Origin: Minisyncoccia bacterium
GTDB taxonomy: Bacteria > Patescibacteriota > Minisyncoccia > Phycocordibacterales > CAJBRS01
Direction: 5' to 3'
DNA length: 64,000 bases
Assembly (NCBI GenBank): GCA_038215155.1
Contig: JBBQRF010000002.1
Coordinates: 50,712-114,711 of the forward strand
This document shows positions 12,324 to 63,162 of the stretch, piece by piece. Numbering within the stretch: position 1 is the first letter of the stretch; every line of letters starts with the position of its first letter. The notes beneath the pieces are model-generated. The model did no database searches and was not told where the DNA came from. It was given only the letters and a program-made list of their open reading frames with translations. The translations under genes were made by a program, and so were the position numbers.

Positions 12324-12468
12324 AATGTCCTTTATAATATAGAGCTATTTTATTTCGGGGCGCCGGGAAAATATGGTAAAACTAGCTCCACCATAATTTT
12401 GAGTTGGTTGTCTCTTTACCATAGATTTATTCTCCCCGGTTGTAATTTCCGGGTTCGAATCCCTCCCT

Positions 12469-24898: not shown

Positions 24899-25000
24899 AT
24901 TTAGGTGGGGATTATTTTTAAAAAAAGAAGTTCGCCCAAAAGCGAACTGCAGACTAACTGACGTCCTTTAATTTACAGGAAGATATGGATTTGTCAAATC

Positions 25001-32516: not shown

Positions 32517-32520
32517 AATT

Positions 32521-34431
32521 ATGAAATTCATAAAGTCTATAAAGTCTATAAAGTCTATAAAGTCTATAAAGTCTATAAAGAATGGGTATTTTCAGTTTGG
32601 GAAAATAATGACATTACGGACGTTAAAACCTTACGGACGATACAATCAAAATGGCGGACAAGCTATGCTTATTGCGGTGATTTTCTTCTTATTTATTAGC
32701 CTTACTATTATTCTCGGCATTACAGTCCCTGTAGTAAATCACATTAAAGAAGTCACTCTATCGAGCAACTCTAAACAAAGTTATGTTCTTGCTGAAGCAC
32801 TTAATGAGGACGCTTACTATCGACTCAATCACAATAAAAATCTCTCTAGCACTTTCAGTCTTTCTTTAAATGGCGCCTCTTCTACCGCCACTGTCACCAC
32901 TAGCGGCCCCAATAAACAAGTTTTCTCTGTAGGATTGGATAATAAAATTAGTCGCTCCGTCAGTACTACTTTTAATCAAGGAGCAGGAGTTTCTTTTAAT
33001 TACGGAGTCCAGGCAGGACAGGGAGGATTCATTTTAAATGGTGGATCCAGAGTAAATGGAAATGTTTATGCAAATGGAGACATCGTAGCCACGAACGGAG
33101 TAGTTATTACCGGCTCTGCTGTCGCCGCTAATAGTGTGGCTCTCTCAGCCGATCAGGTTAATAATTCTCCGAGCACTCCATCAAGCTCCATAAATTTTCG
33201 TGATTCTGCTACCACTCAGGACCTTGCACAGAGTTTTCAAGTTTCCACTTCCACTCCGATCAATAAAGTTCAATTTTATTTGAAGAAAACAGGAAGCCCC
33301 GCTGATGCCACGGTTAAAATTGTCAGTGATAGCAGTGGTTCACCTTCTACCAACGATTTATTTCTCTTGGCGCCTAGTGGCAGCGACGGCACTCTCTTAA
33401 GTTCTCAAGTTGGAACTACTTATACTTGGGTAAATGTAGTTTTTCCCACAAACATTTCTCTTACGGCCGGCACTACGTATTGGTTAGTAATTGATAATGG
33501 TGCTAATAACGCTAGTAATTACTACACTATAGGAGCAAACAGTAATGGCTATGCAAATGGAGTAGGGAGGAATGGAAAATACAGCGGCACTTGGAATGCC
33601 TCAAGCGGACTAGATGCCTACTTTCAGATTTATTTAGGAGGATTGACTTCTACTATTGGTGGAAACACTTATGTGGGAGGAGTGAATGTAGGTACCGGTT
33701 CGGTGGGCGACGCCTGGGCCCATGATGTAGAAGGAGCCAGTGTGGCTGGCACTATTTATTGCCAAATAGGTAATCATAATAATAAAACTTGCGATACCTC
33801 TCGAGGAGACCCCTCTCCAGTAGGCCTTCCTGTTTCAGATGCCAATATTCTCCAATGGAAAACAGATGCGGCCGGCGGCACCATTATTAATGGAAATGTC
33901 ACCATTGGCTTTGCTGGAACGACGACTGGTCCTACAAAAATTAATGGCAATCTTACTATTAACGGCGGAGGCACTCTTACTTTGACAGGAGGGGTGTGGG
34001 TAACAGGAAATATCACTGTCTCCAATGGCGCTAAGGTCACCCTATCTCCATCATATGGAGCAAGCAGTGGAATTTTACTCTCCGATGGATGGATAAATTT
34101 AACCGGAGGGGGAGCGTTGAGCGGTTCGGGCACCACGGGCAGTTATTTAATGGTTCTTACGACTAGCGCCTGTCCCAACAGCGGCAATTGTAGTGGCTCC
34201 CCGAGCAATAACGCCCTCACAGTTACTGGGGGTGCGGGAGCGGTGGTAGTAAATGCTCAGAATGGCACCCTGGAACTTAGTGGAGGTTCAGGTCTCAAAG
34301 AAGCCACAGCCAATCTAATTGTAGATACTGGGGGAGCCACCCTCACTTACGATAGCGGTCTAGCTAATCAGAATTTTGTTAGCGGTCCATCTGGAGCTTG
34401 GAATGTAGCAAGTTGGCAGGAGGTGCCGTAG
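32521..34431 (+). CDS. Large pilus-associated protein (PilX/PilY1-like tip or adhesin candidate). TM anchor, then Gly/Thr/Asn-rich beta-helix-like repeats. The true start is possibly at 32605 (MTLRTLK) or 32662 (MLIAVIFF).
   Basis: Follows three pseudopilin genes. TM helix LIAVIFFLFISLTIILGI. Repeats such as INGNLTINGGGTLTLTGGVWVTGNITVSNGAKVTL. Confidence 0.6.
   Translation: MKFIKSIKSIKSIKSIKSIKNGYFQFGKIMTLRTLKPYGRYNQNGGQAMLIAVIFFLFISLTIILGITVPVVNHIKEVTLSSNSKQSYVLAEALNEDAYYRLNHNKNLSSTFSLSLNGASSTATVTTSGPNKQVFSVGLDNKISRSVSTTFNQGAGVSFNYGVQAGQGGFILNGGSRVNGNVYANGDIVATNGVVITGSAVAANSVALSADQVNNSPSTPSSSINFRDSATTQDLAQSFQVSTSTPINKVQFYLKKTGSPADATVKIVSDSSGSPSTNDLFLLAPSGSDGTLLSSQVGTTYTWVNVVFPTNISLTAGTTYWLVIDNGANNASNYYTIGANSNGYANGVGRNGKYSGTWNASSGLDAYFQIYLGGLTSTIGGNTYVGGVNVGTGSVGDAWAHDVEGASVAGTIYCQIGNHNNKTCDTSRGDPSPVGLPVSDANILQWKTDAAGGTIINGNVTIGFAGTTTGPTKINGNLTINGGGTLTLTGGVWVTGNITVSNGAKVTLSPSYGASSGILLSDGWINLTGGGALSGSGTTGSYLMVLTTSACPNSGNCSGSPSNNALTVTGGAGAVVVNAQNGTLELSGGSGLKEATANLIVDTGGATLTYDSGLANQNFVSGPSGAWNVASWQEVP
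32530..32580 (+). repeat. Perfect tandem repeat (ATAAAGTCT) x5.7
   Basis: ataaagtct repeated five times plus ataaag. It lies at the annotated 5' end (IKS x5) of the large pilus gene, or in its leader if translation starts at M29 or M48. Confidence 0.95.
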
Positions 34432-39290: not shown

Positions 39291-40757
39291 GTGAAATTTT
39301 ATCTTTTTGTCTGGAGTTTTTTTGGTGGTGTCTTTTTAATTTCCGTCTTTAGCCTAGTGAGTTCGGCCATCATCCTCGGAGTAATATTCTCCGGTGTGAT
39401 AGTTGTAGGCGCCCTAAGAAAAGAATACCTACTTATCAGTTTTTTATTTTTTCTGGCTCTTATAATGGGTGCTTGTCGGATGGAAGTAGACAAGCACCGT
39501 ACTCCCAACCAAATATTGGTGGATAGTTTAAATAAATTTGTAACCATTCGAGGGATTTTAGTAGATGAGCCAGACCAAAGAGAAAATAGCACTAATTTAG
39601 TCGTCTTGCCGAACGTAGTATCTGAAAAAATACTCCCGGGTAGCACATCGGAGAAAATTCTGGTTCGAGCAATGGCTGATTCGAATTTTCAATACGGTGA
39701 CGAAGTGGAACTAAAGGGCAGGTTAGAGTTACCACAGAAAATCCTCTCCGGCAACGCTGATTTTAATTATCCAGAATATCTAGCCAAGGATGATATTTAT
39801 TATCTGATACCGCGAGCAGATGTAAGAAAAATTTCTACGGGACACGGAAATATAACTAAACGCACTCTCTTTAAACTAAAAGCTAACTTTCTTAGAAATA
39901 TAAACGCCATATTGCCCCAACCGCACGCTGGTTTTGTTGAGGGTATCGTAATTGCCGGTAAGAAATCTTTACCTAAAAACCTTCTGACAGAATTTCAGAG
40001 GACGGGTACTCTCCAAATTATTGTTCTATCAGGGTACAACATTACTATTGTTGCCGAGGCAATGATGAGGCTCTTTTCCTATCTAATGGGCGCCGGATTT
40101 TCCTACTTCGCCGGCGCCTTCTCCATCATCTTATTTTCCATAATGGCAGGAGGTTCTGCCACGGTCATTCGGGCCACTTTAATGGCTCTCATCTCTATAT
40201 TAGCTAAAGCCACTCATCGAGTTTACCAAGCAAAGCGCGCTCTATTTTTAGCCGGATTTTTAATGGTTTTTCAAAATCCGCGTATTTTAGTATATGACCC
40301 TTCCTTTCAATTAAGTTTTCTGGCCACCCTAGGGTTGATGGTTCTTTCACCTTATTTTGAAAAACACTTACAATTCTTGCCTGAAAAATTTCAGATTAGA
40401 AACACTGCAAGCGCCACTCTCTCTGCTCAAGTTTTCGTTACGCCTTTAATTCTTTATCAGATTGGTCAACTTTCGTTAGTGTCGGTGCCGGCTAATATGC
40501 TAATGATGTTAGCCATCCCTATCCTCATGCTCTCTGGTTTCTTGACCGGACTCTGGGCTTTTGTAAGTAAGATTGTTGCTTTTCCTCTAGCTTTTATTTC
40601 TTACACACTAGTCTCATACGAGCTACTAGTTTTGAAAATATTTTCCCGCACTCCCTTCGCTTCCATCACCCTCCCATTTTCTGTTTGGCTTTTAGCAATC
40701 AGTTACGGCCTCTATATTTTTATGTGGATAAAAAGTTATAAAGGCCGCTCTGCTTAG
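39291..40757 (+). CDS. comEC: ComEC/Rec2 family DNA-internalisation channel (membrane competence domain, DUF4131 plus competence domain). It lacks the fused MBL domain.
   Basis: Polytopic membrane protein. OB-like N-terminal part (FVTIRGILVDEPDQREN...) and a ComEC core with many TM helices. Confidence 0.8.
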   Translation: MKFYLFVWSFFGGVFLISVFSLVSSAIILGVIFSGVIVVGALRKEYLLISFLFFLALIMGACRMEVDKHRTPNQILVDSLNKFVTIRGILVDEPDQRENSTNLVVLPNVVSEKILPGSTSEKILVRAMADSNFQYGDEVELKGRLELPQKILSGNADFNYPEYLAKDDIYYLIPRADVRKISTGHGNITKRTLFKLKANFLRNINAILPQPHAGFVEGIVIAGKKSLPKNLLTEFQRTGTLQIIVLSGYNITIVAEAMMRLFSYLMGAGFSYFAGAFSIILFSIMAGGSATVIRATLMALISILAKATHRVYQAKRALFLAGFLMVFQNPRILVYDPSFQLSFLATLGLMVLSPYFEKHLQFLPEKFQIRNTASATLSAQVFVTPLILYQIGQLSLVSVPANMLMMLAIPILMLSGFLTGLWAFVSKIVAFPLAFISYTLVSYELLVLKIFSRTPFASITLPFSVWLLAISYGLYIFMWIKSYKGRSA

Positions 40758-46734: not shown

Positions 46735-46740
46735 AGAGAA

Positions 46741-46768
46741 GATGGGGCCGCGAAGCGGCCCCATCTTA
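46741..46768 (+). terminator. GC-rich hairpin after fusA (terminator/attenuator, weak U-tract)
   Basis: gatggggccgcgaagcggccccatc. Confidence 0.45.
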
Positions 46769-46937
46769 CTAAATTCGTTTGACTTCTTTTTTAACTTTGT
46801 TATCATTCCTCTTACACGTTTTGTTAATTCCCTACGGGGTTTTGACTCTAAACGAGGGATAATTATGTTTGCAGACTCTGAAGAGGTGCAGACAGATTTA
46901 AATATTAATAGAAAATTATAATTAACTAATAAAATAT

Positions 46938-48143: not shown

Positions 48144-48235
48144 AAGTCCATAAAGTTTTTAAAGTCCTTAAAGTTATTCTTGTCGCAAGACAAAAAACTT
48201 TAAGGACGTTGAAAACACTAAGGACCTTATAGCCT
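48144..48235. repeat. Palindromic intergenic element of the GTCC(W)TAAAG family in the tuf-rpsJ spacer
   Basis: aagtccataaagtttttaaagtccttaaagtt...aactttaaggacgt inverted repeat with a central ttgtcgcaagacaa hairpin. Confidence 0.7.
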
Positions 48236-48676
48236 ATGAGTGAAACAACTAAAAAAACAAAAACTACCACTTCAAAAGCGAAGACACCTCGAGCTACTAA
48301 AACAGGCGGCGCCTCTAAAGGTCGCGCCACAGCTCCCAAAACTGCGGCCGTTAAAGCGGCCGCAGAAGGTATCTCAAAATTGCGCATTCGAGTACGAGCT
48401 TACGAATCCAAAATACTTGATCAATCAGTTAAGCAAATTATGGACACCGCTCTTCGATATGACGCTACAGTTTTGGGTCCCATTCCTCTCCCAACTGAAA
48501 TTAAAAAATACACGGTGAATCGCTCCGCTTTCGTTTACAAAAACGCCAGAGAGCAGTTTGAGATGAGAGTTCATAAGCGTTTGCTTGACATAGTAAATCC
48601 TACCGCTAAAGTGGTGGAGGCCCTCACTAATTTGAGCTTACCAAGTGGAGTCAGTATTGATGTAAAAATGATTTAA
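48236..48676 (+). CDS. rpsJ: 30S ribosomal protein S10 with an ~45-aa Lys/Thr/Ala-rich N-terminal extension
   Basis: RIRVRAYESKILD...conserved S10 core. No alternative ATG between the annotated start and the core. Confidence 0.9.
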   Translation: MSETTKKTKTTTSKAKTPRATKTGGASKGRATAPKTAAVKAAAEGISKLRIRVRAYESKILDQSVKQIMDTALRYDATVLGPIPLPTEIKKYTVNRSAFVYKNAREQFEMRVHKRLLDIVNPTAKVVEALTNLSLPSGVSIDVKMI

Positions 48677-48677
48677 G

Positions 48678-49295
48678 ATGAAATTTATTTTAGGAACAAA
48701 ACAGAAAATGACTCAGGTTTTTGATGAGAGTGGCAAGGTTTATCCTGTTACGGTCATTAAAACTGCAGGCATGGTTGTTTCTCAAATAAAGACTAAAGAA
48801 AAAGATGGGTATGAGGCAGTGCAAGTCGGAATGGGTGAGAGAAGAGAGAAAAGAATAAAAAAAGCCCAGAAAGGCCACCTAAAAGATTTGGGCAACCTTC
48901 GACACATTAAAGAATTTAGAATTTCCTCCGCTGAATCATCAGAAATGAAAAGAGGGGCGAAAATCACCTCGGCGATTTTCGCCCCCGGCGACAAAGTCAC
49001 AGTTTCCGCTACTTCTAAAGGAAAAGGTTTCCAGGGAGTGGTTAAGCGACACGGTTTCCATGGCGGTCCGAGAAGTCATGGTCAAAAGCACTCAGAGCGC
49101 GAGGCTGGTTCTATCGGCACCGCTGGTTACCAGCGAGTTTTTAAAGGACGCCGGATGGCCGGACGTATGGGTGGCGACCGGGTCACTGTTAAGAATCTGG
49201 AAGTTATTAACGTAGATTCTGAAAAAGAAGAAATTTTAATAAAAGGAGCCATTCCCGGCACTCGCGGCACCTTAGTAGAAATCGTGGCAAAATAA
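48678..49295 (+). CDS. rplC: 50S ribosomal protein L3
   Basis: Canonical L3 (GKGFQGVVKRHGF). Confidence 0.96.
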   Translation: MKFILGTKQKMTQVFDESGKVYPVTVIKTAGMVVSQIKTKEKDGYEAVQVGMGERREKRIKKAQKGHLKDLGNLRHIKEFRISSAESSEMKRGAKITSAIFAPGDKVTVSATSKGKGFQGVVKRHGFHGGPRSHGQKHSEREAGSIGTAGYQRVFKGRRMAGRMGGDRVTVKNLEVINVDSEKEEILIKGAIPGTRGTLVEIVAK

Positions 49296-49296
49296 A

Positions 49297-49929
49297 ATGG
49301 AAGCAAAAATTTACAATCAACAAGGTAAAGAAGCGGGCAACATAAATTTGCCAGAAACTGTTTTCGGTTTGCCTTGGAATGCTGATCTTGTTCACCAAGT
49401 CACTACTTCCATCCAAAATAATCAACGGAACGCCTGGGCACATACTAAAGATCGAGGCGATGTATCTGGAGGAGGAAAAAAACCTTGGAAACAGAAAGGC
49501 ACCGGACGCGCCCGTCACGGCTCTACCCGTTCTCCTATTTGGGTTGGTGGAGGAGTAGCTCATGGTCCAAAAAAAGCCAAGAACTACAAGAAGAAAATCA
49601 ACAAAAAAATGCGAGCTAAAGCACTCTACACAGTTATTTCTAAAAAATTTAAGGAAGGCGAGATAATTTTTGTGGAAAATCTTAACTTTACCGTTCCAAA
49701 GACTAAAGACGCTAAAGCAGTTCTTAGCTCACTAAAAGTGAATCGCTCTGCTTACATTGCGCTTTCAAGCAAGGATGCAAACGTCAAAAAGAGTTTCAAT
49801 AATTTCGGCAATCTGATGGTAGACGAAGTTCGCAACCTTAACGTCCTTGATGTTATGAATCACAAGTTTCTAGTCATCACCAATCCCAGCGAGTCGGTGA
49901 AGTTCATAGAAAGTAAGATGCAAAAATAA
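49297..49929 (+). CDS. rplD: 50S ribosomal protein L4
   Basis: KPWKQKGTGRARHGS. Confidence 0.96.
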   Translation: MEAKIYNQQGKEAGNINLPETVFGLPWNADLVHQVTTSIQNNQRNAWAHTKDRGDVSGGGKKPWKQKGTGRARHGSTRSPIWVGGGVAHGPKKAKNYKKKINKKMRAKALYTVISKKFKEGEIIFVENLNFTVPKTKDAKAVLSSLKVNRSAYIALSSKDANVKKSFNNFGNLMVDEVRNLNVLDVMNHKFLVITNPSESVKFIESKMQK

Positions 49930-49930
49930 T

Positions 49931-50215
49931 ATGGCAAATCATTTACACAATAGTATGGCTATTCTTCGACCCCGCGTTACTGAAAAGGCGAGCTTAGTTA
50001 ATAGTGCCAATGTCTATACTTTTGAAATTGCTGAAACGGCTACTAAAAAAGATGTCTCTCGAGAGATTAGGGATGTTTACAAGGTCAATCCTATTGCTGT
50101 TAATATTGCCCGCACTCCAAGAAAAACTGTCACCCAGAAAGGTATTAAGGGCCGTACAAAAGGGGTTAAGAAAGCTTATGTTTATTTAAAAGCAGGAGAT
50201 CGTATTGAAATTTAA
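49931..50215 (+). CDS. rplW: 50S ribosomal protein L23
   Basis: [11 protein letters not shown]... Confidence 0.95.
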
Positions 50216-50217
50216 TC

Positions 50218-51060
50218 ATGAAGTCCTACAAACCCACATCCCCATCACGCCGACAAATGAGCCACGTTAGCTATCGTGGAGTTTTTAACGCTACGGAGCC
50301 AGAGAAGTCTTTAACCAAAGGCTTTAAGCGCGCAGTGGGAAGAAACAATCAAGGCCGCATCACTACTCGACACAAAGGATCTGGTCACAAGCGACTTTAT
50401 CGCGAAGTGGATTTTACTTTTAATAAAAAAGATATTCCAGCTAAAATCACTACCATTGAATACGATCCTAACCGTTCCGGATTTATCTCTCTTTTAGTTT
50501 ATGCTGATGGTGAAAAGCGTTACACTCTCTTACCCAAGTCATTAAAAGTAGGAGACACTATTTTAATCTCTGAAAAAGCCGAAGTAAAAGCAGGGAATCG
50601 CTTGCCACTACGAAATATTCCTGTCGGAACTTTTATTTACAATGTAGAAGTAAAGCCAGGTTCGGGCGCCGTCCTTTCTCGAGCTGCTGGCAACTATGCT
50701 GAAGTAATTGCTCAAGACGAAGGATATTCTCAGGTGAAATTACCATCCACCGAAGTACGAAAAATTAAAGACAGCGCCTGGGCTTCTATCGGAGAAGTTT
50801 CTAATGATGAAAATCGGCTGCAAAATTTCGGCAAGGCAGGGCGTTCTCGTTGGAAAGGTATTCGACCAACCGTTCGAGGAACCGCTATGAACCCCGTTGA
50901 TCACCCACACGGAGGAGGAGAAGGAAAGCAAGGCCGAGGAACTCGCCGAGCTAAAAGTATTTACGGTAAGCCAACTGGAAAAGGCCAGAAATCCCGCCGG
51001 GCTAAAAAATACTCAAATCGCATGATTGTCTCCCGCCGAAAAGTAGGAAAGAAGCGGTAA
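50218..51060 (+). CDS. rplB: 50S ribosomal protein L2
   Basis: RNIPVGT..., [13 protein letters not shown]. Confidence 0.97.
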
Positions 51061-51074
51061 TTCAGCATTTTAAT

Positions 51075-51130
51075 TTGACAGCATCTCCCTTTCTGCTAGT
51101 ATGTTTTAAGCCGCCAGGGGCGGCATTTTC
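51075..51130 (+). promoter_or_regulatory. Putative internal promoter (-35 TTGACA, 16-nt spacer, -10 TAGTAT) followed by a GC hairpin and U-tract (attenuator-like leader) upstream of rpsS
   Basis: tttgacagcatctccctttctgctagtatg, then gccgccaggggcggcatttt. This is an 89-bp gap in an otherwise abutting operon. Confidence 0.4.
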
Positions 51131-51149
51131 AGTCAAAAAATAAGATTAA

Positions 51150-51509
51150 ATGACACGATCACTCAAAAAAGGTCCATTTGTGGACGCCAAATTATTAAAG
51201 AAGATTAGTGGAAAAAAGCCAGGAGAATCGGCGGTTGTTAAAACTTGGGCACGCCGCAGCGATATTAGTCCAGAAATGATCGGCTTTACTTTTGGAGTTC
51301 ACAATGGAAAGCAGCATTTAGAAGTCTTTGTTACAGAAGAAATGGTTGGCCACAAGCTAGGGGAATTTTCTCCTACTAAGAAATTCTTAAGACACGGAGG
51401 AAAGATGCAGAAGGAACAGGAGGCTGCCGCAAAAGAGGCGGAAATTAATGCCGCTAAGTCAGCACGCGCGGCGGCGGACGGCGCCACAAATAAGGCCCCC
51501 GCTAAATAA
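51150..51509 (+). CDS. rpsS: 30S ribosomal protein S19 with an ~27-aa Ala/Lys-rich C-terminal extension
   Basis: [10 protein letters not shown]...[13 protein letters not shown]... Confidence 0.95.
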
Positions 51510-51518
51510 TTTTTATAT

Positions 51519-51842
51519 ATGAAAGCAGCCCTTAAAACTTACAGACAATCACCTCGAAAAGTCCGCCTCGTTGCAGACTTGATTAGAGGCAAGAAAACCA
51601 GCGACGCGCTGGTGACTTTGCAGTTTGCCAATAAGAGAGCGGCGGTAGAACTGACTAAATTACTGAAAAGTGCAATCGCTAACGCTAAAAATCTAGACGC
51701 AGATGAAAGCAAGCTCTACATCAAGGAAATTCAAGTAAATAAAGGCGTTACTTTGAAACGTATAATGCCTCGCGCTCGTGGTTCTGCCTCTGCTATTAAT
51801 AAGCGCACCAGCCACGTTACCATTTCACTAGCAACTAAATAA
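51519..51842 (+). CDS. rplV: 50S ribosomal protein L22
   Basis: Canonical L22. Confidence 0.95.
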   Translation: MKAALKTYRQSPRKVRLVADLIRGKKTSDALVTLQFANKRAAVELTKLLKSAIANAKNLDADESKLYIKEIQVNKGVTLKRIMPRARGSASAINKRTSHVTISLATK

Positions 51843-51843
51843 C

Positions 51844-52518
51844 ATGTCACACACAGTTCATCCATATTCACATCGTTTAGGCATAATTAGAGACTGGAAA
51901 TCTCGATGGTTTGGAGTGAATAAGCAATACAGGGATTTTTTGCGTTGCGATATTTTAATTCGAGAATGGCTTGAAAAGAAAATGCGAGGACTTTATGTTA
52001 GCGCAATTGAAATGGAGCGTAATCAAAAAAATCTTAGAATAATTATTAAAAGCTCTCGTCCAGGTATGATCATTGGCCGAAGTGGGGAGGGTGCCACAAA
52101 ACTCCGCAACGATATTTCCAAGCAGATGCGCAAGCTCGGCATTGCACTGACGAACGAAGAACTAAAAATCGACATTGAAGAAATTCGCTCTCCTGAATCT
52201 AATGCTGCAATTCTTGCTCAGATGATTGCGGAAAGTTTGGAAAAGCGGCTACCTTTCCGACGGGTAATGAAGCAGATGGTAGAAAAAGCCATGGCTAATC
52301 GCGATGTTTTAGGTGTTAAGATTCTCCTTTCGGGTCGTCTCGGCGGCGCCGACATGTCTCGAAAAGAGGAGCTTAAGAGAGGGCGTATTCCCCTTCAAAC
52401 CTTCCGCGCCGACATCGATTTCGTTAGATACGAAGCCCATATGCCTTACGGCAATATCGGTATCAAAGTCTGGATTTATAGGGGCGAGATTTTTGAAAAA
52501 GATAAGAAAACTACCTAA
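51844..52518 (+). CDS. rpsC: 30S ribosomal protein S3
   Basis: KH domain GIIRDWKSRWF. Confidence 0.96.
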   Translation: MSHTVHPYSHRLGIIRDWKSRWFGVNKQYRDFLRCDILIREWLEKKMRGLYVSAIEMERNQKNLRIIIKSSRPGMIIGRSGEGATKLRNDISKQMRKLGIALTNEELKIDIEEIRSPESNAAILAQMIAESLEKRLPFRRVMKQMVEKAMANRDVLGVKILLSGRLGGADMSRKEELKRGRIPLQTFRADIDFVRYEAHMPYGNIGIKVWIYRGEIFEKDKKTT

Positions 52519-52523
52519 TTACC

Positions 52524-52943
52524 ATGCTATATCCTAAAAAAGTAAAACATCGAAAATGGCAAACTGGCCGAGTTAATTCCAAAAAGACGGTAGTGGAAAC
52601 GCGCGGCATCACTCTTTCCTTTGGATCATTTGGCTTAAAAGCTACATCTGCATCCCGAGTGCGCTCTAATCAAATTGAATCAGCCCGCAAGGTCTTGGCT
52701 CGTTCCGTAAGCAAGGTAGGGAAGATTTGGATTCGCATATTTCCCGACCGACCATATACTGCTAAACCAGCAGAGGTGGGAATGGGAAAGGGTAAAGGGG
52801 ATCTCCAGGGCTATGAATTCCAAGTTTGGCCTGGACGCATTTTATTTGAAATTGACGGGGTGGAAGAAAGTGTTGCCCGAGAGGCATTACGAAAGGCTGC
52901 TACAAAATTACCGGTTAAGACAAGAATTGTTAGTCGGGTATAA
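52524..52943 (+). CDS. rplP: 50S ribosomal protein L16
   Basis: MLYPKKVKHRK. Confidence 0.96.
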   Translation: MLYPKKVKHRKWQTGRVNSKKTVVETRGITLSFGSFGLKATSASRVRSNQIESARKVLARSVSKVGKIWIRIFPDRPYTAKPAEVGMGKGKGDLQGYEFQVWPGRILFEIDGVEESVAREALRKAATKLPVKTRIVSRV

Positions 52944-52957
52944 AAACCATAGTTAAA

Positions 52958-53161
52958 ATGAAGAAAAATAATTACAAAGGAAAAGCAGGATCGGAATTAT
53001 CCAAAACTCTCAAAGAAAAAAGAGAGGCCTTAAAGAAATTTCGCTTTAGTCTGGCTGGTACATCAGTGAAGAATGTAAAGGAAGGCCGAGCGGTGCGAAA
53101 GGACATTGCTAGAATCTTAACTGAATTAAATACACAAAAATCTAAAAGTTTGAAAGTTTAA
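52958..53161 (+). CDS. rpmC: 50S ribosomal protein L29
   Basis: Size and position. Helical Lys-rich protein between L16 and S17. Confidence 0.85.
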   Translation: MKKNNYKGKAGSELSKTLKEKREALKKFRFSLAGTSVKNVKEGRAVRKDIARILTELNTQKSKSLKV

Positions 53162-53168
53162 AATCATC

Positions 53169-53429
53169 ATGAACACCCCAACCTCAGAAACAAATAAGTC
53201 TACTAAGCGTAAAATCCTTTCGGGGATAGTTATGTCTGACAAAATGAAGGATACAATCGTGGTAAAGGTAGAGCGATATGTAAAGCATCCAAAATATGGT
53301 AAGTATATTAAGCACGCCAAACGATATAAGGCACATGATGCGGGTAATCTTCATAAGATTGGCGAAAAAGTGGACATTGAGGAATGTAAGCCTATTTCTA
53401 AAGATAAACATTTTAAAGTAATTAATTAA
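53169..53429 (+). CDS. rpsQ: 30S ribosomal protein S17
   Basis: GIVMSDKMKDTIVVKVERYVKHPKYGKYIK. Confidence 0.95.
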   Translation: MNTPTSETNKSTKRKILSGIVMSDKMKDTIVVKVERYVKHPKYGKYIKHAKRYKAHDAGNLHKIGEKVDIEECKPISKDKHFKVIN

Positions 53430-53430
53430 T

Positions 53431-53802
53431 ATGATTCAGCCACGATCCATCGTAAATATTGTTGATAATTCTGGAGCCAAAATCGGCCGTATTTTCAAAG
53501 TACTTGGATCATCAAAAAAGCGTTACGCTGAAATAGGCGAACAGGTAGTTCTTTCTGTTCAAAAAGCTGAGCCGCGCAAGCAAGTAAAGAAAAAAGATGT
53601 ATTACAGGCAGTAGTAGTGCGACAGAAAAAGGCCTTTCGTCGCAAGGACGGTTCATATATTCGCTTCGATGAAAACGCCGTAGTAATTTTAGAGAAAGGA
53701 AAGAAAGAGCCCATTGCCGGTCGTGTATTCGGGCCCATCCCTCGAGAAATTTCCGAATTTGGTTATCAGACCATTGCTTCACGAGCGCCGGAGATAGTAT
53801 AA
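53431..53802 (+). CDS. rplN: 50S ribosomal protein L14
   Basis: MIQPRSIVNIVDNSGAK. Confidence 0.97.
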   Translation: MIQPRSIVNIVDNSGAKIGRIFKVLGSSKKRYAEIGEQVVLSVQKAEPRKQVKKKDVLQAVVVRQKKAFRRKDGSYIRFDENAVVILEKGKKEPIAGRVFGPIPREISEFGYQTIASRAPEIV

Positions 53803-53909
53803 ATAATCCATAATGTCTCTAAAGTCCATAATGTCCATAAAGTCGAAGACTTTCCATCAGGTGACCTTACAGACTTTAAAGACCTTAGGGACGTTAAAGA
53901 CTAAATAAT
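53803..53909. repeat. Intergenic repeat block (GTCC(W)TAAAG family, direct and inverted copies) inserted between rplN and rplX
   Basis: ccataatgtctctaaagtccataatgtccataaagtcgaagactttcc...gactttaaagaccttagggacgttaaagac. Confidence 0.7.
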
Positions 53910-54212
53910 ATGAAATTAAAGAAAGGAGACAACGTAATAGTGATCACAGGTAAAGATAAGGGCAAAACTGGTAAGATTGCCCGGGCTTTTCCGGCTAAGA
54001 ATTCAGTGCTTATTCAGGGAATAAACATTAAGAAGCGAAGCCAGAAAGCTAAACAAGCCAATCAAAAGGGGCAGATTATTGAAATATCTTCTCCTGTTCA
54101 CATCTCAAACGTCATGATTGTAGATGACAGTGGAAAACGCGGCCGAATAGGGAAAAAGTTGGTCGGAGGCGAATACGTACGCATTCATAAGAAGTCAGGG
54201 AAGACCCTATAG
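53910..54212 (+). CDS. rplX: 50S ribosomal protein L24
   Basis: KLKKGDNVIVITGKDKGKTGKI (KOW motif). Confidence 0.95.
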   Translation: MKLKKGDNVIVITGKDKGKTGKIARAFPAKNSVLIQGINIKKRSQKAKQANQKGQIIEISSPVHISNVMIVDDSGKRGRIGKKLVGGEYVRIHKKSGKTL

Positions 54213-54239
54213 TTTTAGAGGGATTCTCAGAAGAAAAAT

Positions 54240-54776
54240 ATGACAACCATTAAAGAAAAACAAAATAAAATCTTTGAAACCCTTAAAGGGGAGTTTAAAT
54301 ATAAGAATCGCATGCAGGCGCCAAAAATAATGAAAGTGGTGCTAAGTTCGGCTACTGGCTCTATTAAAGATCCGAAGAAGAAGGAATTAATTGCTGATAG
54401 AATTACTAAAATTTCTGGCCAGAAGGTTTCTCCTCGAGCGGCCAAGAAATCTGTTGCCACTTTTAAAATTCGCGAAGGTGACGAGATTGGTTTCCAAGTA
54501 ACACTACGAGGTGAGAGGATGTACGATTTTCTAGAGAAGTTAGTAAATGTAGCATTACCTCGTACTCGAGACTTCCGAGGCATTAAACTCTCCGCTCTCG
54601 ACGAGATTGGCAATTATACCGTCGGTATTAAAGAGCACAGCATTTTTCCTGAGACTTCTGACGAGGAATTGAAAGATGTTTTTGGTTTGGCAGTCACACT
54701 AGTCACTAACTCTAAAGACCGAAATCAGACCCAAAAGATGATGGAAAATTTAGGTTTCGTCTTTAAAAAAGCTTAA
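54240..54776 (+). CDS. rplE: 50S ribosomal protein L5
   Basis: Canonical L5. Confidence 0.96.
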   Translation: MTTIKEKQNKIFETLKGEFKYKNRMQAPKIMKVVLSSATGSIKDPKKKELIADRITKISGQKVSPRAAKKSVATFKIREGDEIGFQVTLRGERMYDFLEKLVNVALPRTRDFRGIKLSALDEIGNYTVGIKEHSIFPETSDEELKDVFGLAVTLVTNSKDRNQTQKMMENLGFVFKKA

Positions 54777-54777
54777 T

Positions 54778-54838
54778 TTGACTTCTATTTCTCCTCTGAT
54801 AATATGAATCGAAGCTCGATTTGAGCTATTTTTTATCC
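54778..54838 (+). promoter_or_regulatory. Putative internal promoter (-35 TTGACT, 16 nt, -10 TAATAT) plus a short hairpin and U-tract leader upstream of rpsZ
   Basis: tttgacttctatttctcctctgataatatg, then agctcgatttgagctattttttat. Confidence 0.35.
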
Positions 54839-54849
54839 ATTTTTTAATT

Positions 54850-55035
54850 ATGGCCAAAACTTCTGTAAAAGCTCGGGCGGCTCGACCGCCAAAATTCCAA
54901 AGCCGAGTAGTTCGTCGTTGTTTTCGCTGTGGTCGGAAGAATGGCTATATGAGGGACTTTGCCCTCTGCCGAATTTGTTTCCGTGAAGCGGCTAATGACG
55001 GCAAAATTCCTGGTATTAAGAAATCGTCCTGGTAA
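54850..55035 (+). CDS. rpsZ: 30S ribosomal protein S14 type Z (zinc-binding)
   Basis: CxxC...CxxC (RCFRCGRKNGYMRDFALCRICFRE). 61 aa. Confidence 0.95.
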   Translation: MAKTSVKARAARPPKFQSRVVRRCFRCGRKNGYMRDFALCRICFREAANDGKIPGIKKSSW

Positions 55036-55054
55036 TCATAATATCCTAAGCAAA

Positions 55055-55447
55055 ATGAAAGACCCTATCGCAGACCTAATCATTAAAATAAAGAACGCTA
55101 ACATGGCTGGCCATGAAACTGTTACTGTTCCTTATTCAAAAATGAAAGTGGCTGTTCTGGAAGTACTGGAGAAAGAAGGGTATGTGCAGGGCTTAAGCAA
55201 AAAGGGAAAAAAGATCACTAAATTCATCGAAGTCGGTCTAGTTTACGAAGACGATAAAAAACCACGCATTAGCGGAGTAGAAAGAGTTTCTAAATTTTCC
55301 AAGCGCGTCTACCAAAAAGCTAAAGAAATTCGACCGGTTCGATCAAGCTTCGGCACACTAGTGCTAACAACTCCTAAAGGAATTCTGACCGATAAAGAAG
55401 CTCGGAAAGAAAAGGTCGGAGGCGAAGCATTGTTTAAGATATGGTAA
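55055..55447 (+). CDS. rpsH: 30S ribosomal protein S8. The track ORF begins at 54959 in the rpsZ overlap. The S8 start is the MKDPIADL ATG at 55055.
   Basis: MKDPIADLIIKIKNANMAGHETV. Confidence 0.93.
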   Translation: MKDPIADLIIKIKNANMAGHETVTVPYSKMKVAVLEVLEKEGYVQGLSKKGKKITKFIEVGLVYEDDKKPRISGVERVSKFSKRVYQKAKEIRPVRSSFGTLVLTTPKGILTDKEARKEKVGGEALFKIW

Positions 55448-55536
55448 GAAGTTTATAAAAGTTATAAGGTTCATAAAGTTCGTAAAGCAAACACTTTATA
55501 AACTTTAAAAACTTTAAGAACTTTTACCTAAAATAC
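55448..55536. repeat. Palindromic AT-rich repeat block (TTATAAAG / CTTTATAA family) between rpsH and rplF
   Basis: aagtttataaaagttataaggttcataaagttcgtaaag...cactttataaactttaaaaactttaag. Confidence 0.65.
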
Positions 55537-56070
55537 ATGTCACGAGTCGGCAAACAAACCATTACCATTCCCGCAAACACTGAAGTAAAACTATCTTCAG
55601 GCGTCCTTGATATTAAAGGCCCAAAGGGTGTGCTTTCAAAGAAATTCACTGATGTGGTGAACATTAAGATAGATGGTCAAAATATCACCTTGGTACCCAC
55701 ATCCGAGAATTTGGAAACTCAAGCGCTCTGGGGAACTTATGCCTCTCACATTATTAACATGATTGAGGGAGTAAATAATCCTTACGTAAAGAAATTAATT
55801 ATTGAAGGGATTGGTTACAAAGCGGAAGTTTCTGGAACCAATTTAGTTTTGAATATTGGATTATCTCATCAGGTTAAAGTAGAAATTCCTGCTGAAATAA
55901 AAGTATTGGTAGAAAAAAATGTTGTTACTATTACCGGCGCTGATAAAGAAACGGTAGGACAATTTGCTTCTCAAATTCGAGCGCTTAAGAAACCAGAACC
56001 ATACAAAGGAAAAGGTATTCGATATGAAAAAGAAATAGTTCGTCGCAAGCAAGGAAAGAAATCTGTATAG
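55537..56070 (+). CDS. rplF: 50S ribosomal protein L6
   Basis: [17 protein letters not shown]. Confidence 0.96.
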
Positions 56071-56083
56071 CAATCTGTCTAAA

Positions 56084-56425
56084 ATGAATACCAAAATTGA
56101 ACAAAGGAATAGACGACGCAAAAGAATCCGATCTAAGGTTTCAGGATCAATGAGTATGCCTCGACTTTCGGTTTTCAAATCAAACAAATACATTTACGCC
56201 CAGCTTATTGATGACGAAAATGGTAAAACTCTCGCCTCTTTTTCTTCGGCAAAAATTAAAGTAAAAGGAAAGATTGAGCAAGCTAAAAAAGTTGGCGAAG
56301 AGTTAGCCAAAGTAGCACAGGAAAAAAATATTAAGACTGCAGTATTTGATCGAGGAGGTTTTATCTATACCGGTCGGGTAAAGGCTTTAGCGGAAGGGGC
56401 ACGGGAAGGGGGGCTGAAATTTTAG
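56084..56425 (+). CDS. rplR: 50S ribosomal protein L18
   Basis: [19 protein letters not shown]. Confidence 0.95.
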
Positions 56426-56460
56426 TAAGAAGATAATCATCAGTTTACGAAGATAATAAT

Positions 56461-57075
56461 ATGGATGAAGAAAATAAAAATTTAAATAACGAAGGAACTG
56501 TAGAAGAAGCGGCCGGAGCCGCCGTTCCGGCGGCTCCGGCTCAAGTTCCTTCACAAGGAGATCGTCCACAACGAGGGTCTTTTCGTAATGCTCGCACAAA
56601 AAACGAACGAAAACCTCGCCGTGAGCCCCGTGCTAAACCAGAATTCGATCAACGAATCATTGCTATCCGCCGAGTAACTCGAGTGGCTGCTGGAGGTCGC
56701 CGCTTCAGTTTCAGCGTGGCACTAGTAGCTGGTAATCGAAAGGGCCAAGTGGGGGTTGGAACCGGTAAAGCCGGCGATACATCTTTAGCAATCGAGAAAG
56801 CTTTGAAAAATGCCAAGAAGAATATGATTACAGTAAGAACAACTAGCGACATGTCTATTGCGCATGAAATTAAGGCCAAATTCTCAAGTGCTCGGGTGGA
56901 AATTTTCCCTGCCAAAGGGCGTGGAATTGCCGCGGGAAGTTCCGTTCGGGACGTCATTGATCTAGCTGGTATTAAAGATGTTACCGCCAAGCTTCACTCT
57001 GGAACTAAGAATAAACTCAATAACGCCAGGGCCGCTATCAAAGCTCTGTCGAGTCTTAAAGTGGTCAAGTCCTAA
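56461..57075 (+). CDS. rpsE: 30S ribosomal protein S5 with an ~45-aa acidic/Ala-Pro-rich N-terminal extension
   Basis: RVTRVAAGGRRFSFSVALVAGNRKGQVGVGTGKA. Confidence 0.95.
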   Translation: MDEENKNLNNEGTVEEAAGAAVPAAPAQVPSQGDRPQRGSFRNARTKNERKPRREPRAKPEFDQRIIAIRRVTRVAAGGRRFSFSVALVAGNRKGQVGVGTGKAGDTSLAIEKALKNAKKNMITVRTTSDMSIAHEIKAKFSSARVEIFPAKGRGIAAGSSVRDVIDLAGIKDVTAKLHSGTKNKLNNARAAIKALSSLKVVKS

Positions 57076-57099
57076 AAGCCCTAAAGAAAGACTAAAAAC

Positions 57100-57540
57100 A
57101 TGCAATCAAATCACCTAAAAAGAATTCATAAAAATAAAAAGTCCCTCGCAGTTGGTCGTGGTGGAAAAAGAGGGAAGACCGCCGGACGCGGAACTAAGGG
57201 TCAGAAAGCTCGCTCTGGGCGCAAACTCCGCCCTGAGTTGCGGGATATCATTAAAAAATTACCAAAACTACGCGGCCGTGGCAAAAATTCCTTTCTAAGT
57301 ATTCAAGAAAAACCAATCACTATTAATTTAGCGGTTCTCGAAAAGGTATTTAATAATGGTGACAAAATTTCAGTTACCACTTTGGTCCAAAAGAAAGTAG
57401 TAAATCTCTATAAAGGAAAATCTCCCGTAGTGAAAATTCTGGGAGATGGTGAACTAACCAAAAAACTAAACATTCAAGGATGCTTGGCTTCTTCTGGCGC
57501 TAAAAGTAAAATAGAAAAAGCTGGCGGTACGATAAAGTAA
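57100..57540 (+). CDS. rplO: 50S ribosomal protein L15 (no L30 gene between rpsE and rplO)
   Basis: GRGGKRGKTAGRGTKGQKARSG. Confidence 0.95.
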   Translation: MQSNHLKRIHKNKKSLAVGRGGKRGKTAGRGTKGQKARSGRKLRPELRDIIKKLPKLRGRGKNSFLSIQEKPITINLAVLEKVFNNGDKISVTTLVQKKVVNLYKGKSPVVKILGDGELTKKLNIQGCLASSGAKSKIEKAGGTIK

Positions 57541-57550
57541 AATATTCTCT

Positions 57551-58822
57551 ATGAATACATTTATAGAAAAATTAAAAGCAATCTTCAGTGATCCAGCAAT
57601 CCGCAAGCGGATTATTTTTGTTTTAGTGGCGCTAGTGCTTTTTCGTCTATTAGCCGCTATTCCTGTTCCAAATATTGATCACGCCCAATTAGCTAACTTC
57701 TTTAATAACAACGCATTCTTCGGCCTACTAGGAGTTTTCTCAGGTGGCGGACTCTCTACTCTTTCAATTATTATGTTAGGAGTAGCTCCTTACATCACTG
57801 CCTCCATTATTATGCAGCTATTAACTATGATGTCCCCACGCCTTAAGGCAATGTATCAAGAGGAGGGTGAAGCTGGACGAATGAAATTCACTCAATATTC
57901 TCGCCTTCTGACGCTACCTTTGGCTATTCTTCAAGCTTTTGCTTACATGATTCTCTTCCAGAAACAGGGAGTAGTGGCGCATTTAGATACCTTAGGATTG
58001 GTCACCAATATTTTAGTTATTTCTGCGGGCTCAATTTTATTAATGTGGATTGGCGAATTAATTACGGAATTCGGTGTTGGGAACGGAGTCTCAATTCTAA
58101 TTTTTGCCGGTATTGTGTCACGTCTCCCTCAGGATTTATTGCAGCTATTTTATACTTTTGATCAATCACAAATTCCAACTTACTTACTATTTTTAGCAGG
58201 GGCTATCTTAATTGTCTACGGCGTTGTGGTGGTGACAGAAGCGGAAAGACCAATTCCTGTCACCTATGCTAAACAAGTCAGAGGAAACAAAGTCTATGGC
58301 GGGGTTTCAACTTATCTTCCATTGCGCCTAAATCAATCTGGAGTCATTCCCATTATTTTTGCTCTCTCAATTTTACTTTTTCCTCAAATGATTTTCCGTT
58401 TTTTTCAAACATCTTCACATGTCTGGATTGCCTCCACCTCCGCGACGATATTGTCCCTATTGGCTAATCAATTAGTTTACGGCATTTCTTATTTCGTCCT
58501 AGTTTTTCTTTTCACATATTTTTATACAGCCGTTACTTTTGATCCAGGGACTATATCGACTAATCTTCAGAAGAGTGGCGCTTTTATTCCCGGCGTACGC
58601 CCCGGAAACTCTACTTCGGAATACATGAGTAAGGTTCTAACCAGAATTACTCTAGTGGGGGCACTTTTCCTCGGAGTCATCGCCGTTCTGCCACTTGTCG
58701 CTCGAGCGTTCACAGGTAATCAGTCGCTAGCCATTGGAGGAACCGCACTTCTCATTGCCGTGTCCGTGGTTTTGGATTTAGTTAAGAAAATTGATGCGCA
58801 GCTCGGTATGCGCGAATATTAG
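57551..58822 (+). CDS. secY: Preprotein translocase subunit SecY
   Basis: 10-TM protein. GGLSTLSIIMLGVAPYITASII. Position after rplO. Confidence 0.97.
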   Translation: MNTFIEKLKAIFSDPAIRKRIIFVLVALVLFRLLAAIPVPNIDHAQLANFFNNNAFFGLLGVFSGGGLSTLSIIMLGVAPYITASIIMQLLTMMSPRLKAMYQEEGEAGRMKFTQYSRLLTLPLAILQAFAYMILFQKQGVVAHLDTLGLVTNILVISAGSILLMWIGELITEFGVGNGVSILIFAGIVSRLPQDLLQLFYTFDQSQIPTYLLFLAGAILIVYGVVVVTEAERPIPVTYAKQVRGNKVYGGVSTYLPLRLNQSGVIPIIFALSILLFPQMIFRFFQTSSHVWIASTSATILSLLANQLVYGISYFVLVFLFTYFYTAVTFDPGTISTNLQKSGAFIPGVRPGNSTSEYMSKVLTRITLVGALFLGVIAVLPLVARAFTGNQSLAIGGTALLIAVSVVLDLVKKIDAQLGMREY

Positions 58823-63052: not shown

Positions 63053-63162
63053 GGAAAATCCTCCTATGTCCTAAGACTTTTGTCGAGGCGCGTCAGTCAA
63101 TTTGGGTCCGCTAGGCCAAGTCTTACCCTCGCTAAAAGTCTCAGGACACATCCGGATTTTCC
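63053..63162. repeat. Copy 2 of the palindromic repeat element (see 20585-20662), here with extended outer inverted repeats (ggaaaatcc...ggattttcc)
   Basis: Core of about 64 nt is roughly 90% identical to copy 1. Nested inverted repeats. Confidence 0.8.

Follow-up and report, generated by a model that had tools for sequence, protein, structure and literature searches.

Foldback hairpins built from tandem 9-nt units between ribosomal-protein genes of a Minisyncoccia bacterium, a candidate repeat family of CPR bacteria

The stretch of DNA analyzed here, which we call the window, comprises 64,000 nucleotides (64 kb) of a Minisyncoccia contig with a GC content of about 41%. Named homologues of its S10 protein indicate a host of the Parcubacteria/Paceibacterota type within the CPR. 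It encodes PNPase and RNase Y, as well as all of the competence-type genes cited in an earlier reading of the sequence alone (type IV pilus genes, ComEC, ComM, and a DksA-type protein). A str-S10-spc ribosomal-protein (r-protein) cluster occupies the forward strand from about 43 to 58.8 kb, with junctions mostly of 1–35 nt and no Shine-Dalgarno motif evident upstream of its genes. The sequence-only reading had claimed that four junctions of this cluster are filled by AT-rich blocks of 90–110 bp, built from direct and inverted copies of a motif of about 9–12 nt. Assigning the flanking genes tuf, rpsJ, rplN, rplX, rpsH, rplF, rpsE, and rplO by Pfam, we found three of the four blocks at about the size described (92, 107, and 89 nt, with 22–35% GC), containing the motif strings that had been quoted; the fourth spacer, between rpsE and rplO, is 24 nt long. 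The spacers considered here are the following:

32517–32607, forward strand: pilus-operon spacer, 91 nt, from the last pseudopilin gene (end 32516) to a PilX-like / choice-of-anchor-R gene
48144–48235, forward strand: tuf-rpsJ spacer, 92 nt, with a foldback hairpin at 48146–48225 (fold, Tandem Repeats Finder, three-unit pattern)
53803–53909, forward strand: rplN-rplX spacer, 107 nt, with a foldback hairpin at 53807–53900 (period 9/18 arrays, fold, three-unit pattern)
55448–55536, forward strand: rpsH-rplF spacer, 89 nt, with a foldback hairpin at 55456–55526 (fold, Tandem Repeats Finder, three-unit pattern)
57076–57099, forward strand: rpsE-rplO spacer, 24 nt, with two degenerate units, AAGCCCTAA and AGAAAGACTAA (Tandem Repeats Finder score 31)

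Each of the three long r-protein spacers forms one long imperfect hairpin, with folding energies of −33.0 (tuf-rpsJ), −25.0 (rplN-rplX), and −21.1 kcal/mol (rpsH-rplF) and respective z-scores of −7.3, −3.7, and −4.8; none of 200 shuffles folded equally well. Both arms of each hairpin are period-9 tandem arrays according to Tandem Repeats Finder (75–90% arrays), the 5' arm consisting of three to four copies of TAAAGTYNN and the 3' arm of its complement, NNRACTTTA. The tuf-rpsJ hairpin carries units GTCCATAAAG, TTTTTAAAG, and GTCCTTAAAG in its 5' arm and AACTTTAAGGAC with related units in its 3' arm; these arms are 33 nt long and 82% complementary, and the loop is itself an inner mini-hairpin, TTGTC-GCAA-GACAA. 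About four copies of TCCATAAWG pair with about four of GACSTTAVA at rplN-rplX, and about four of AGTTYATAA with four of CTTTAWRAA at rpsH-rplF. The stems contain 63–79% A-U pairs, and the folded hairpins leave 2–8 nt after the stop codon and 9–10 nt before the next ATG (a 10-nt unpaired tail before rpsJ, 9 nt before rplX, and 10 nt before rplF). The rplN-rplX hairpin is also flanked by an 8-nt direct repeat, TAAATAAT, a single case.

The three-unit pattern TAAAGTYNNTAAAGTYNNTAAAG, searched with up to two mismatches, has 14 matches in the window, found only at 32.5 (32522–32580), 48.1, 53.8, and 55.5 kb, and none in shuffles. An independent Logan assembly is 100% identical to the window over 10.8 kb covering all three hairpins, so the hairpins are not an assembly artefact. 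The three copies are mutually diverged and are not recent copies of one another.

The match at 32.5 kb is a 9-nt tandem repeat that had been correctly connected to the same motif. Positions 32530–32580 hold 5.7 copies of ATAAAGTCT, a head-to-tail simple-sequence repeat with the same unit as the window hairpins, in direct orientation only and without an inverted arm (100% matches, Tandem Repeats Finder score 102). The true start of the PilX-like gene is at 32608 (Met30), since the NCBI protein (607 aa) and about 120 homologues begin there; the array is therefore intergenic and noncoding, and an ORF called from 32521 has a spurious N-terminus. Hairpins and direct array alike are located between co-directional genes of tight operons. 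The rpsE-rplO spacer is unfolded (0 kcal/mol) and has no hairpin; its two degenerate units could be left over from an element or could match by chance, and their membership in the family is uncertain.

The repeat is more restricted than had been proposed. It does not fill intergenic regions in general: the fusA-tuf, rplB-rpsS, and rplE-rpsN spacers carry instead promoter-like TTGAC(A/T)-16-TG-extended −10 sites and small GC hairpins. The recurrences reported at 11666–11880 and 24961–24972 are single loose matches, and those at 9610–9714 and 12321–12339 belong to another motif, TGTCCTTTA, which occurs at 9605, 9616, 9698, 12314, and 12326 (5 observed, 0.68 expected). This motif is separate from the GTCCWTAAAG units, having neither a 9-nt period nor hairpins of this kind. 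Its sites are in two intergenic regions near tRNA genes, where it overlaps −35-like TTTACA hexamers at 9605–9624 and 9698–9706 and forms an operator-like inverted pair at 9698–9718.

Several other identities were considered for the hairpins and the array. A terminator and promoter scan called no terminator-like site in the three hairpin spacers, in which a G+C-rich stem followed by a T run was not found, and we rejected a terminator or promoter identity of the TAAAG hairpins on this basis. We also rejected a TIGR-Tas array, which has 36-nt units with edge and loop repeats, variable spacers, and an adjoining Nop-domain Tas gene (PMC12045711): the period here is 9 (18) nt, there are no spacer-like variable blocks, and the window has no Tas gene, nor any Nop-domain protein among its scanned ORFs. 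Likewise, the scanned ORFs of the 64-kb window include no transposase, RAYT (Y1_Tnp), or other candidate mobilizing gene.

For comparison with relatives, we took 80 metagenomic loci identified by their L14 and 4 further loci, located the r-protein genes in them, and measured every junction. Dropping duplicate genomes and keeping operons with at least five junctions left 63 operons: 41 are free of hairpin spacers, a single one is present in 16, and 6 carry at least two; several hairpins per r-protein operon are found in about 10% of related Parcubacteria. The hairpins have been added in particular lineages to stop-to-start gaps that elsewhere measure 1–40 nt. At tuf-rpsJ, rplN-rplX, and rpsH-rplF, the gaps measure 10, 12, and 38 nt in L006/L487 (L14 97% identical) and 8, 2, and 4 nt in L002, with conserved coding flanks in each case, and L004 has hairpins at tuf-rpsJ and rplN-rplX that are built from a quite different unit, TACGAAT. 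We found no closer relative on a long contig above about 75% nucleotide identity. Comparisons between near-identical assemblies (L004/L005 and L001/window) revealed no strain-level indels and are uninformative on variation.

Six colonized genomes (L488, L503, L499, L501, L539, and L004) have hairpins of 70–130 nt at many junctions, drawing on several types of 7–9-nt unit per genome, among them AAGTACGC, TCAATTT, GGGTATAG, GTTACAA, GATTCAA, and TAAAGT. Arm periodicity reaches at least 0.6 in 12 of 51 hairpin spacers compared with 0 of 79 shuffled spacers. One unit type occupies differing junctions across genomes: the TAAAGT type is at S17-L14 in L488 and L499, and at S19-L22 and L22-S3 in L503. 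Within one genome, copies at separate junctions are nearly identical, as in L503, whose two copies differ at 3 of 102 positions (97% identity) and have near-identical loops too. The loop GAATGNGAGCATTC is common to the L499 and L503 elements, which are 85% identical, compared with 74–75% for the adjacent r-protein genes.

We also scanned 185,579 species genomes with the three-unit pattern and obtained at least 120 loci. Among the matches listed, 33 are from CPR bacteria of many classes (Magasanik-, Roizman-, Gottesman-, Berkel-, Falkow-, Campbell-, Taylor-, and Nomurabacteria, Saccharibacteria, and Gracilibacteria), and many of these have the architecture of an array, a loop, and a complementary array. 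The order of the arms is constant among the matches listed, with the TAAAGT array ahead of the ACTTTA array in 22 cases and behind it in 0. Among the arrays listed, the hairpin form accounts for 26 of 69 in CPR bacteria, 14 of 144 in other bacteria, and 4 of 174 in viral contigs; for two shuffled-unit controls the corresponding counts among the matches listed are 6 of 221, including three low-complexity reverse-order pairs, and 0 of 387.

In other CPR bacteria, the terminal loops of rRNA helices have been replaced by a TAAAGT-type hairpin. The 16S rRNA gene of L040 (Magasanikiibacteriota) contains two such hairpins at terminal loops of the Rfam model, where a 4-nt loop has become a 134-nt insert and the 13-nt tip of helix 44 a 107-nt insert, and the complete Campbellbacteria genome L109 has one hairpin inside its 23S gene. 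The remaining CPR copies among the matches listed include those at M50-S12, S12-S7, S3-L16, S19-L22, atpH-atpA, and ClpB-PrgI and upstream of S20, and some that follow several unrelated genes.

The breadth of the direct arrays has to be read differently from that of the hairpins. Direct arrays show no orientation bias relative to flanking genes. Direct TAAAGT arrays also occur in Bacteroidota, Ignavibacteria, and viruses, but two composition-matched control units gave at least 120 matches each in viral contigs, and period 7–9 arrays of many units are abundant in the relatives' loci. Because control units are equally abundant, the breadth of direct TAAAGT arrays is no evidence for one family or a shared factor, and we dropped the idea of a universal trans-factor for the TAAAGT unit, the control units being as widespread. 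The specific trait is the hairpin form, which is enriched in CPR bacteria.

In the interpretation towards which we lean, the window hairpins are members of a family of small, non-autonomous palindromic ('foldback') elements of CPR bacteria, as is the related direct array. Presence and absence at orthologous sites, shifting junctions, near-identity within a genome, similarity between genomes exceeding that of flanking genes, and the fixed arm order point to a copy-and-paste family, and taken together these five results argue against both conserved regulators and independent local microsatellites. The points against such a family are the lack of a mobilizing gene in the window, the divergence of the window copies, and the lack of a target-site duplication: across 55 hairpin spacers, we detected none of at least 5 nt, and flanking direct repeats matched the shuffle expectation. 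The enrichment at translation genes could instead reflect function.

Foldback elements of this kind would spread by a copy-and-paste process, either transposition or templated conversion, and their arrays would grow and shrink by replication slippage, as the perfect 5.7-copy array in the pilus operon supports. Copies may persist mainly where a self-folding hairpin is harmless. In mRNA, the fold is predicted to bring the upstream stop and the downstream start to within about 12–18 unpaired bases, so that translation of the next cistron could continue in these operons with their 1–30-nt junctions; the tails and post-stop gaps of the folded hairpins resemble native gaps, and a self-contained hairpin would be structurally harmless at such a junction. 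In rRNA, the fold would merely lengthen a helix tip. If the hairpins affect mRNA at all, for example through cutting by RNase III or by blocking 3' exonucleases, this would be a secondary consequence. According to published notes, some Parcubacteria have no anti-Shine-Dalgarno sequence (PMC9297842), which fits the lack of an evident Shine-Dalgarno motif upstream of the r-protein genes of the window.

It is possible, though we think unlikely, that the hairpins are functional intercistronic RNA stem-loops that tune cistron amounts as RNase III sites or 3'-5' exonuclease barriers, the rRNA copies being excised like an intervening sequence. Such a role would suit the placement of all window copies between co-directional genes of tight operons, the constant 9–10-nt tail before the ATG, the enrichment of CPR copies at r-protein, atp, and rRNA genes, the position of the rRNA copies at helix tips, as in intervening sequences, and the presence of PNPase and RNase Y genes in the window. 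Against such a role, the hairpins are not conserved at orthologous junctions (41 of 63 relatives have none), unrelated units occupy equivalent junctions in other genomes, and the features of an intrinsic terminator are absent. Strand comparison is also unfavorable. Of the 55 hairpin spacers, 13 fold better on the sense strand, 26 on the antisense strand, and 16 equally, a difference towards antisense-better folding and thus in the wrong direction (Wilcoxon p = 0.025, the cases not being independent); the rplN-rplX hairpin, for example, reaches −25 kcal/mol in sense and −39.1 in antisense. Enrichment of G-U pairs on the sense strand, a sign of RNA-level selection, was not found in this comparison, which gave a weak opposite trend. 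The lack of any advantage for the sense strand speaks against selection for stable hairpins in the sense RNA.

Local simple-sequence repeats are a less probable source. Here a 9-nt microsatellite would arise by slippage separately in each spacer and become palindromic through fold-back replication errors, with no movement between sites. The perfect direct array at 32530–32580 is of the expected form, period 7–9 arrays are very common in AT-rich genomes, with shuffled-unit controls as abundant, and we found neither a target-site duplication nor, in the window, a transposase. Yet fold-back errors predict both arm orders, against the 22:0 among the matches listed, and local origin is hard to reconcile with copies at different junctions that are nearly identical down to their loops (97% in L503; the loop shared by L499 and L503) or with elements that are more alike between genomes than the conserved genes flanking them.

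We regard DNA-level binding sites, whether 9-bp iteron-like arrays bound by a nucleoid or regulatory protein or sites forming cruciforms, as very improbable. The strict 9-bp spacing, the direct-only arrays without orientation bias, and the folding of both strands about equally, or better in antisense, are compatible with them, but a roadblock inside operons and rRNA genes would be harmful, and the unit sequences vary both between and within genomes. We know of no candidate binding protein for the 9-bp arrays.

Still less credible are autoregulatory leaders or attenuators of r-protein genes such as the L4-responsive S10 leader, proposed because the first hairpin is directly upstream of rpsJ. 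The tuf-rpsJ spacer is 8–10 nt long in L002 and L006 (2–12 and 4–38 nt at the other two junctions), the same type of element separates pilus genes as well as atp genes and also occurs within rRNA, and the spacers match no Rfam family at gathering score or at E ≤ 0.05; for the window as a whole, Rfam gave four tRNAs and one sub-threshold antisense match, and nothing else.

Least of all do the repeats resemble a DNA-uptake signal. The Neisseria DUS and Pasteurellaceae USS are exact 9–12-nt words occurring about once per kb genome-wide, in coding and non-coding DNA and on both strands, and the likeness consists of a short motif, sometimes in inverted pairs, in a genome with competence machinery nearby (type IV pilus genes, ComEC, ComM); the 64 kb contain four exact copies of GTCCWTAAAG, confined to two spacers and absent from coding DNA, the units are degenerate with no exact word, the top 7–10-mers of the window are at about their Markov expectation, with no DUS-like over-representation, and the motif is absent from the orthologous spacers of the nearest relatives, so that at window scale density, exactness, and coding/non-coding distribution all refute this idea.

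A broader form of the foldback interpretation, which we offer tentatively, is a CPR-wide mobile class with arms of tandem 7–9-nt units that is specific to stop-start junctions of highly expressed operons and to rRNA helix tips, moves without a recognizable transposase or target-site duplication, and in some lineages carries a relay mini-ORF. The start codon of such a relay would directly follow the upstream stop, and its stop codon would come just ahead of the next ATG, so that ribosomes would stay coupled while crossing the insert in operons without an evident Shine-Dalgarno motif. A 31-codon ATG...TAA frame at 53813–53908 covers the whole rplN-rplX hairpin. Requiring an ATG within a few bases of the upstream stop and an end no more than 20 nt from the next start (about 8 nt in most), we found such a mini-ORF in 10 of 55 hairpin spacers compared with 1 of 55 reverse-complement controls. 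The ten include all five L503 spacers, which represent two unit types, as well as rplN-rplX of the window; the tuf-rpsJ and rpsH-rplF hairpins have none, so the mini-ORF is not general.

CPR genomes rank with the most compact known, and junctions in their r-protein operons normally measure 1–30 nt, but some CPR lineages tolerate, or are invaded by, repeat-built hairpins of about 90 nt at these junctions and inside rRNA genes. Even minimal genomes, it appears, carry proliferating non-coding elements. The elements provide a marker of recent DNA mobility in unculturable organisms, and if RNase III cuts the hairpins, or if relay ORFs are carried, they would bear on how polycistronic mRNAs are translated without an evident Shine-Dalgarno motif. 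Two practical consequences are that tiny ORFs can be called inside the hairpins during annotation and that arrays of the TAAAGT-type unit, which are frequently located at contig ends, are relevant for assembly and binning.

The feature noticed in the sequence-only reading is real but was mis-assigned: of the three identities suggested there, uptake signal and r-protein leader fail, and the loosest, dispersed REP-like palindromes, comes close. We found no published description of the foldback family, including by searching for the exact repeat sequence, in a literature whose coverage is incomplete. The REP and BIME elements of Enterobacteria and Pseudomonas, associated with RAYT transposases, are likewise imperfect extragenic palindromes, often between co-transcribed genes, with presence/absence at orthologous sites and the ability to act as mRNA hairpins. 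REPs differ in being single palindromes of 20–40 nt with conserved sequence, whereas the hairpins described here are 70–95 nt long with arms of tandem 7–9-nt units, and no RAYT was found among the scanned ORFs of the window. The repeat was seen at 3–4 sites in the 64 kb of the window. Rickettsia palindromic elements are selfish palindromes of reduced genomes, inserted into functional genes, RNA genes among them, at positions that tolerate the fold; they measure 100–150 bp, do not consist of short tandem units, and frequently lie in-frame within protein genes. Insertion where a fold is tolerated is the likeness to the foldback hairpins, with no sequence relation. The foldback (FB) transposons of Drosophila have long inverted arms of short tandem repeats, but are eukaryotic and kilobase-sized, and share with the window hairpins their architecture alone.

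Correia/NEMIS elements of Neisseria, ERIC, and RUP are MITEs, that is, small non-autonomous inverted-repeat elements that are multicopy, intergenic, and co-transcribed as hairpins, and the 'BrickBuilt' MITE of P. gingivalis contains a 23-nt minisatellite, combining tandem repeats with inverted ends (PMC4596501). Inverted repeats, small size, and multiple copies at non-orthologous sites are found here as well. In contrast to MITEs, the window contains no parent IS, a target-site duplication was not detected (one of 2–3 nt is possible), and there are no distinct terminal inverted repeats, the whole arm being a repeat array. Sponge mitochondria have structurally similar but compositionally diverse repetitive hairpin elements (PMC2800124), and these and the double-hairpin elements of fungal mitochondria resemble the present ones in that they repeatedly invade the intergenic DNA of compact genomes and are patchily distributed among close relatives; they are, however, organellar, GC-rich, and not unit-periodic, and their hosts are unrelated.

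The L040 and L109 hairpins, which replace terminal loops of rRNA helices, are akin to rRNA intervening sequences and expansion segments, but the foldback element also occupies mRNA spacers, and the window has no rRNA gene; the rRNA insertions described so far in CPR bacteria are mostly long introns (PMC9297842). TAACTGA heptamer arrays of Beggiatoaceae, cyanobacteria, and Bacteroidetes are long simple-sequence repeats (PMC4679880) that share with our arrays the intergenic tandem units of 7–9 nt, often just upstream of start codons, and a patchy occurrence among phyla. To this type belongs the direct array at 32.5 kb, whereas the hairpin family consists of two paired arrays in fixed order rather than a direct, unfolded one. 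The foldback family is thus unlike all of its nearest kinds: neither a target duplication nor a partner gene is detectable, its arms are tandem arrays of short units, and it prefers gene junctions and rRNA loops in CPR bacteria.

Among the 55 hairpin spacers (intercistronic gaps filled by foldback hairpins) drawn from the window and from the comparison loci L002, L004 and L487-L566, mini reading frames of 27-31 codons cover the entire hairpin in 10; among the 55 reverse-complemented control spacers, 1 does so. These frames start no more than a few bases from the upstream stop codon and end no more than 20 nt, mostly no more than about 8 nt, from the next ATG. Examples are:

53813-53908, window, mini reading frame
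3031-3126, locus L503, mini reading frame
3493-3576, locus L503, mini reading frame
4279-4362, locus L503, mini reading frame
5340-5423, locus L503, mini reading frame
5806-5889, locus L503, mini reading frame

The two strands of the same 55 spacers differ in fold stability: the antisense strand folds better in 26 and the sense strand in 13, with 16 equal. On the mRNA strand, therefore, A-C mismatches tend to outnumber G-U ones, and one candidate cause of the antisense advantage is selection weakening the sense RNA hairpin.

TAAAGT-type hairpins, built from the 9-nt unit, also occur inside rRNA genes of other CPR classes. The 16S rRNA gene of a Magasanikiibacteriota locus (L040, 1864-3705) carries them at 3010-3320 and 3500-3620, where they replace terminal loops of helices, the helix 44 tip among them, and the 23S rRNA gene of a complete Campbellbacteria genome (L109) contains one at about 1020-1150. 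Each of the hairpins in the 16S gene is topped by additional GC-rich stems.

Direct 9-nt arrays affect annotation and probably assembly. At 32521-32607 of the window the array is open and in frame, and because of this the longest ORF call for a PilX-like protein gains a spurious N-terminus beginning MKF(IKS)5, making the array an annotation trap. Bacteroidota and Ignavibacteria MAGs (L009-L128; for example L028, L033, L046, L096 and L118) contain long direct arrays of this same 9-nt unit, often at contig ends, which probably break the assemblies. They adjoin other arrays with 7-nt units (CATCCAG, CTGGTGA and GGCATTA) and are sometimes nested into larger palindromes (L043, L097).

The window contains two copies of a second repeat family, whose core, ACTTTTGTCGAGGCGCGTYAGTYAATTTGGGTCCGCTAGGCCAAGTCTTACCCTCGCYAAAAGT, is about 70 nt long:

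20587-20656, ACTTTTGTCGAGGCGCGTYAGTYAATTTGGGTCCGCTAGGCCAAGTCTTACCCTCGCYAAAAGT core
63075-63144, ACTTTTGTCGAGGCGCGTYAGTYAATTTGGGTCCGCTAGGCCAAGTCTTACCCTCGCYAAAAGT core

The two cores are about 94% identical and lie in unrelated flanks, one between clpP and rsmE and the other 3' of a T4SS coupling-protein-like gene. The core folds into a long hairpin that is richer in GC (-43 and -46 kcal/mol for the two regions), and Rfam gave no match at either site.

A 542-nt gap at 9384-9925, separating the convergent xth-like and cca genes, shows very strong structure (-164.6 kcal/mol, z = -7.5) and contains several long hairpins. An Rfam search of the gap returned no match even at E <= 0.05, and a non-coding RNA gene that has gone unrecognised may lie here. 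The gap holds one perfect DnaA box and three copies of a motif, TGTCCTTTA, that occurs five times in the window against 0.68 expected:

9605-9624, TGTCCTTTA site
9698-9718, TGTCCTTTA site
12314-12334, TGTCCTTTA site

The sequence-only reading had grouped these repeats with the 9-nt hairpin unit; this grouping is not supported, and the two motifs are unrelated. TGTCCTTTA is arranged in direct pairs 11-12 nt apart and also as an inverted pair, TGTCCTTTA-CAA-TAAAGGTCA. Hexamers resembling a -35 element (TTTACA) overlap it at 9605-9624 and 9698-9706, with TACTAT or AATTAT 17 nt downstream, and TGTCCTTTA is reminiscent of a promoter or operator sequence.

Perfect DnaA boxes, TTATCCACA, number three in the window:

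9592-9600, + strand, intergenic
11747-11755, - strand, intergenic
40723-40731, - strand

The cumulative GC skew of the window reaches its minimum at about 10-12 kb, and this region may be a replication-origin neighbourhood, though dnaA is absent from the window. Four tRNA genes cluster in the interval 11.4-12.5 kb and at 17.7 kb. One of their products, tRNA-Arg (11432-11505, - strand), has its gene overlapped by the longest ORF of the CCA-adding enzyme (9926-11551, - strand), so the true start of the enzyme must be further downstream. A sub-threshold Rfam match to Listeria rliD lies at 5882-6135 (+ strand), scoring 31 bits where the gathering score is 50 (E = 8.7e-5). It bridges a gap of 46 nt, reaching into the PNPase gene (- strand) at its 5' end and into an NYN-domain gene at its 3' end.

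The remaining long spacers in the r-protein cluster (46735-46937, 51061-51149 and 54777-54849) contain promoter-like sites (TTGACT-16-TG-TATCAT, TTGACA-16-TG-TAGTAT and TTGACT-16-TG-TAATAT), each beside a small G+C-rich hairpin. At fusA|tuf the hairpin immediately precedes the site; in the two other spacers it immediately follows it. This pattern suggests putative internal promoters or leaders ahead of tuf, rpsS and rpsN. Gene junctions across 48676-58822 are mostly 1-30 nt, have no evident Shine-Dalgarno motif and, in the short spacers, frequently end in ACC or ATC ahead of the ATG, consistent with coupled or SD-independent initiation. S10 begins with a Lys/Thr/Ala-rich extension of about 49 residues (48236-48385) preceding the S10 domain recognised by Pfam (residues 50-144); among the retrieved S10 homologues from Parcubacteria, many also exceed the 98-residue domain (114-152 aa).
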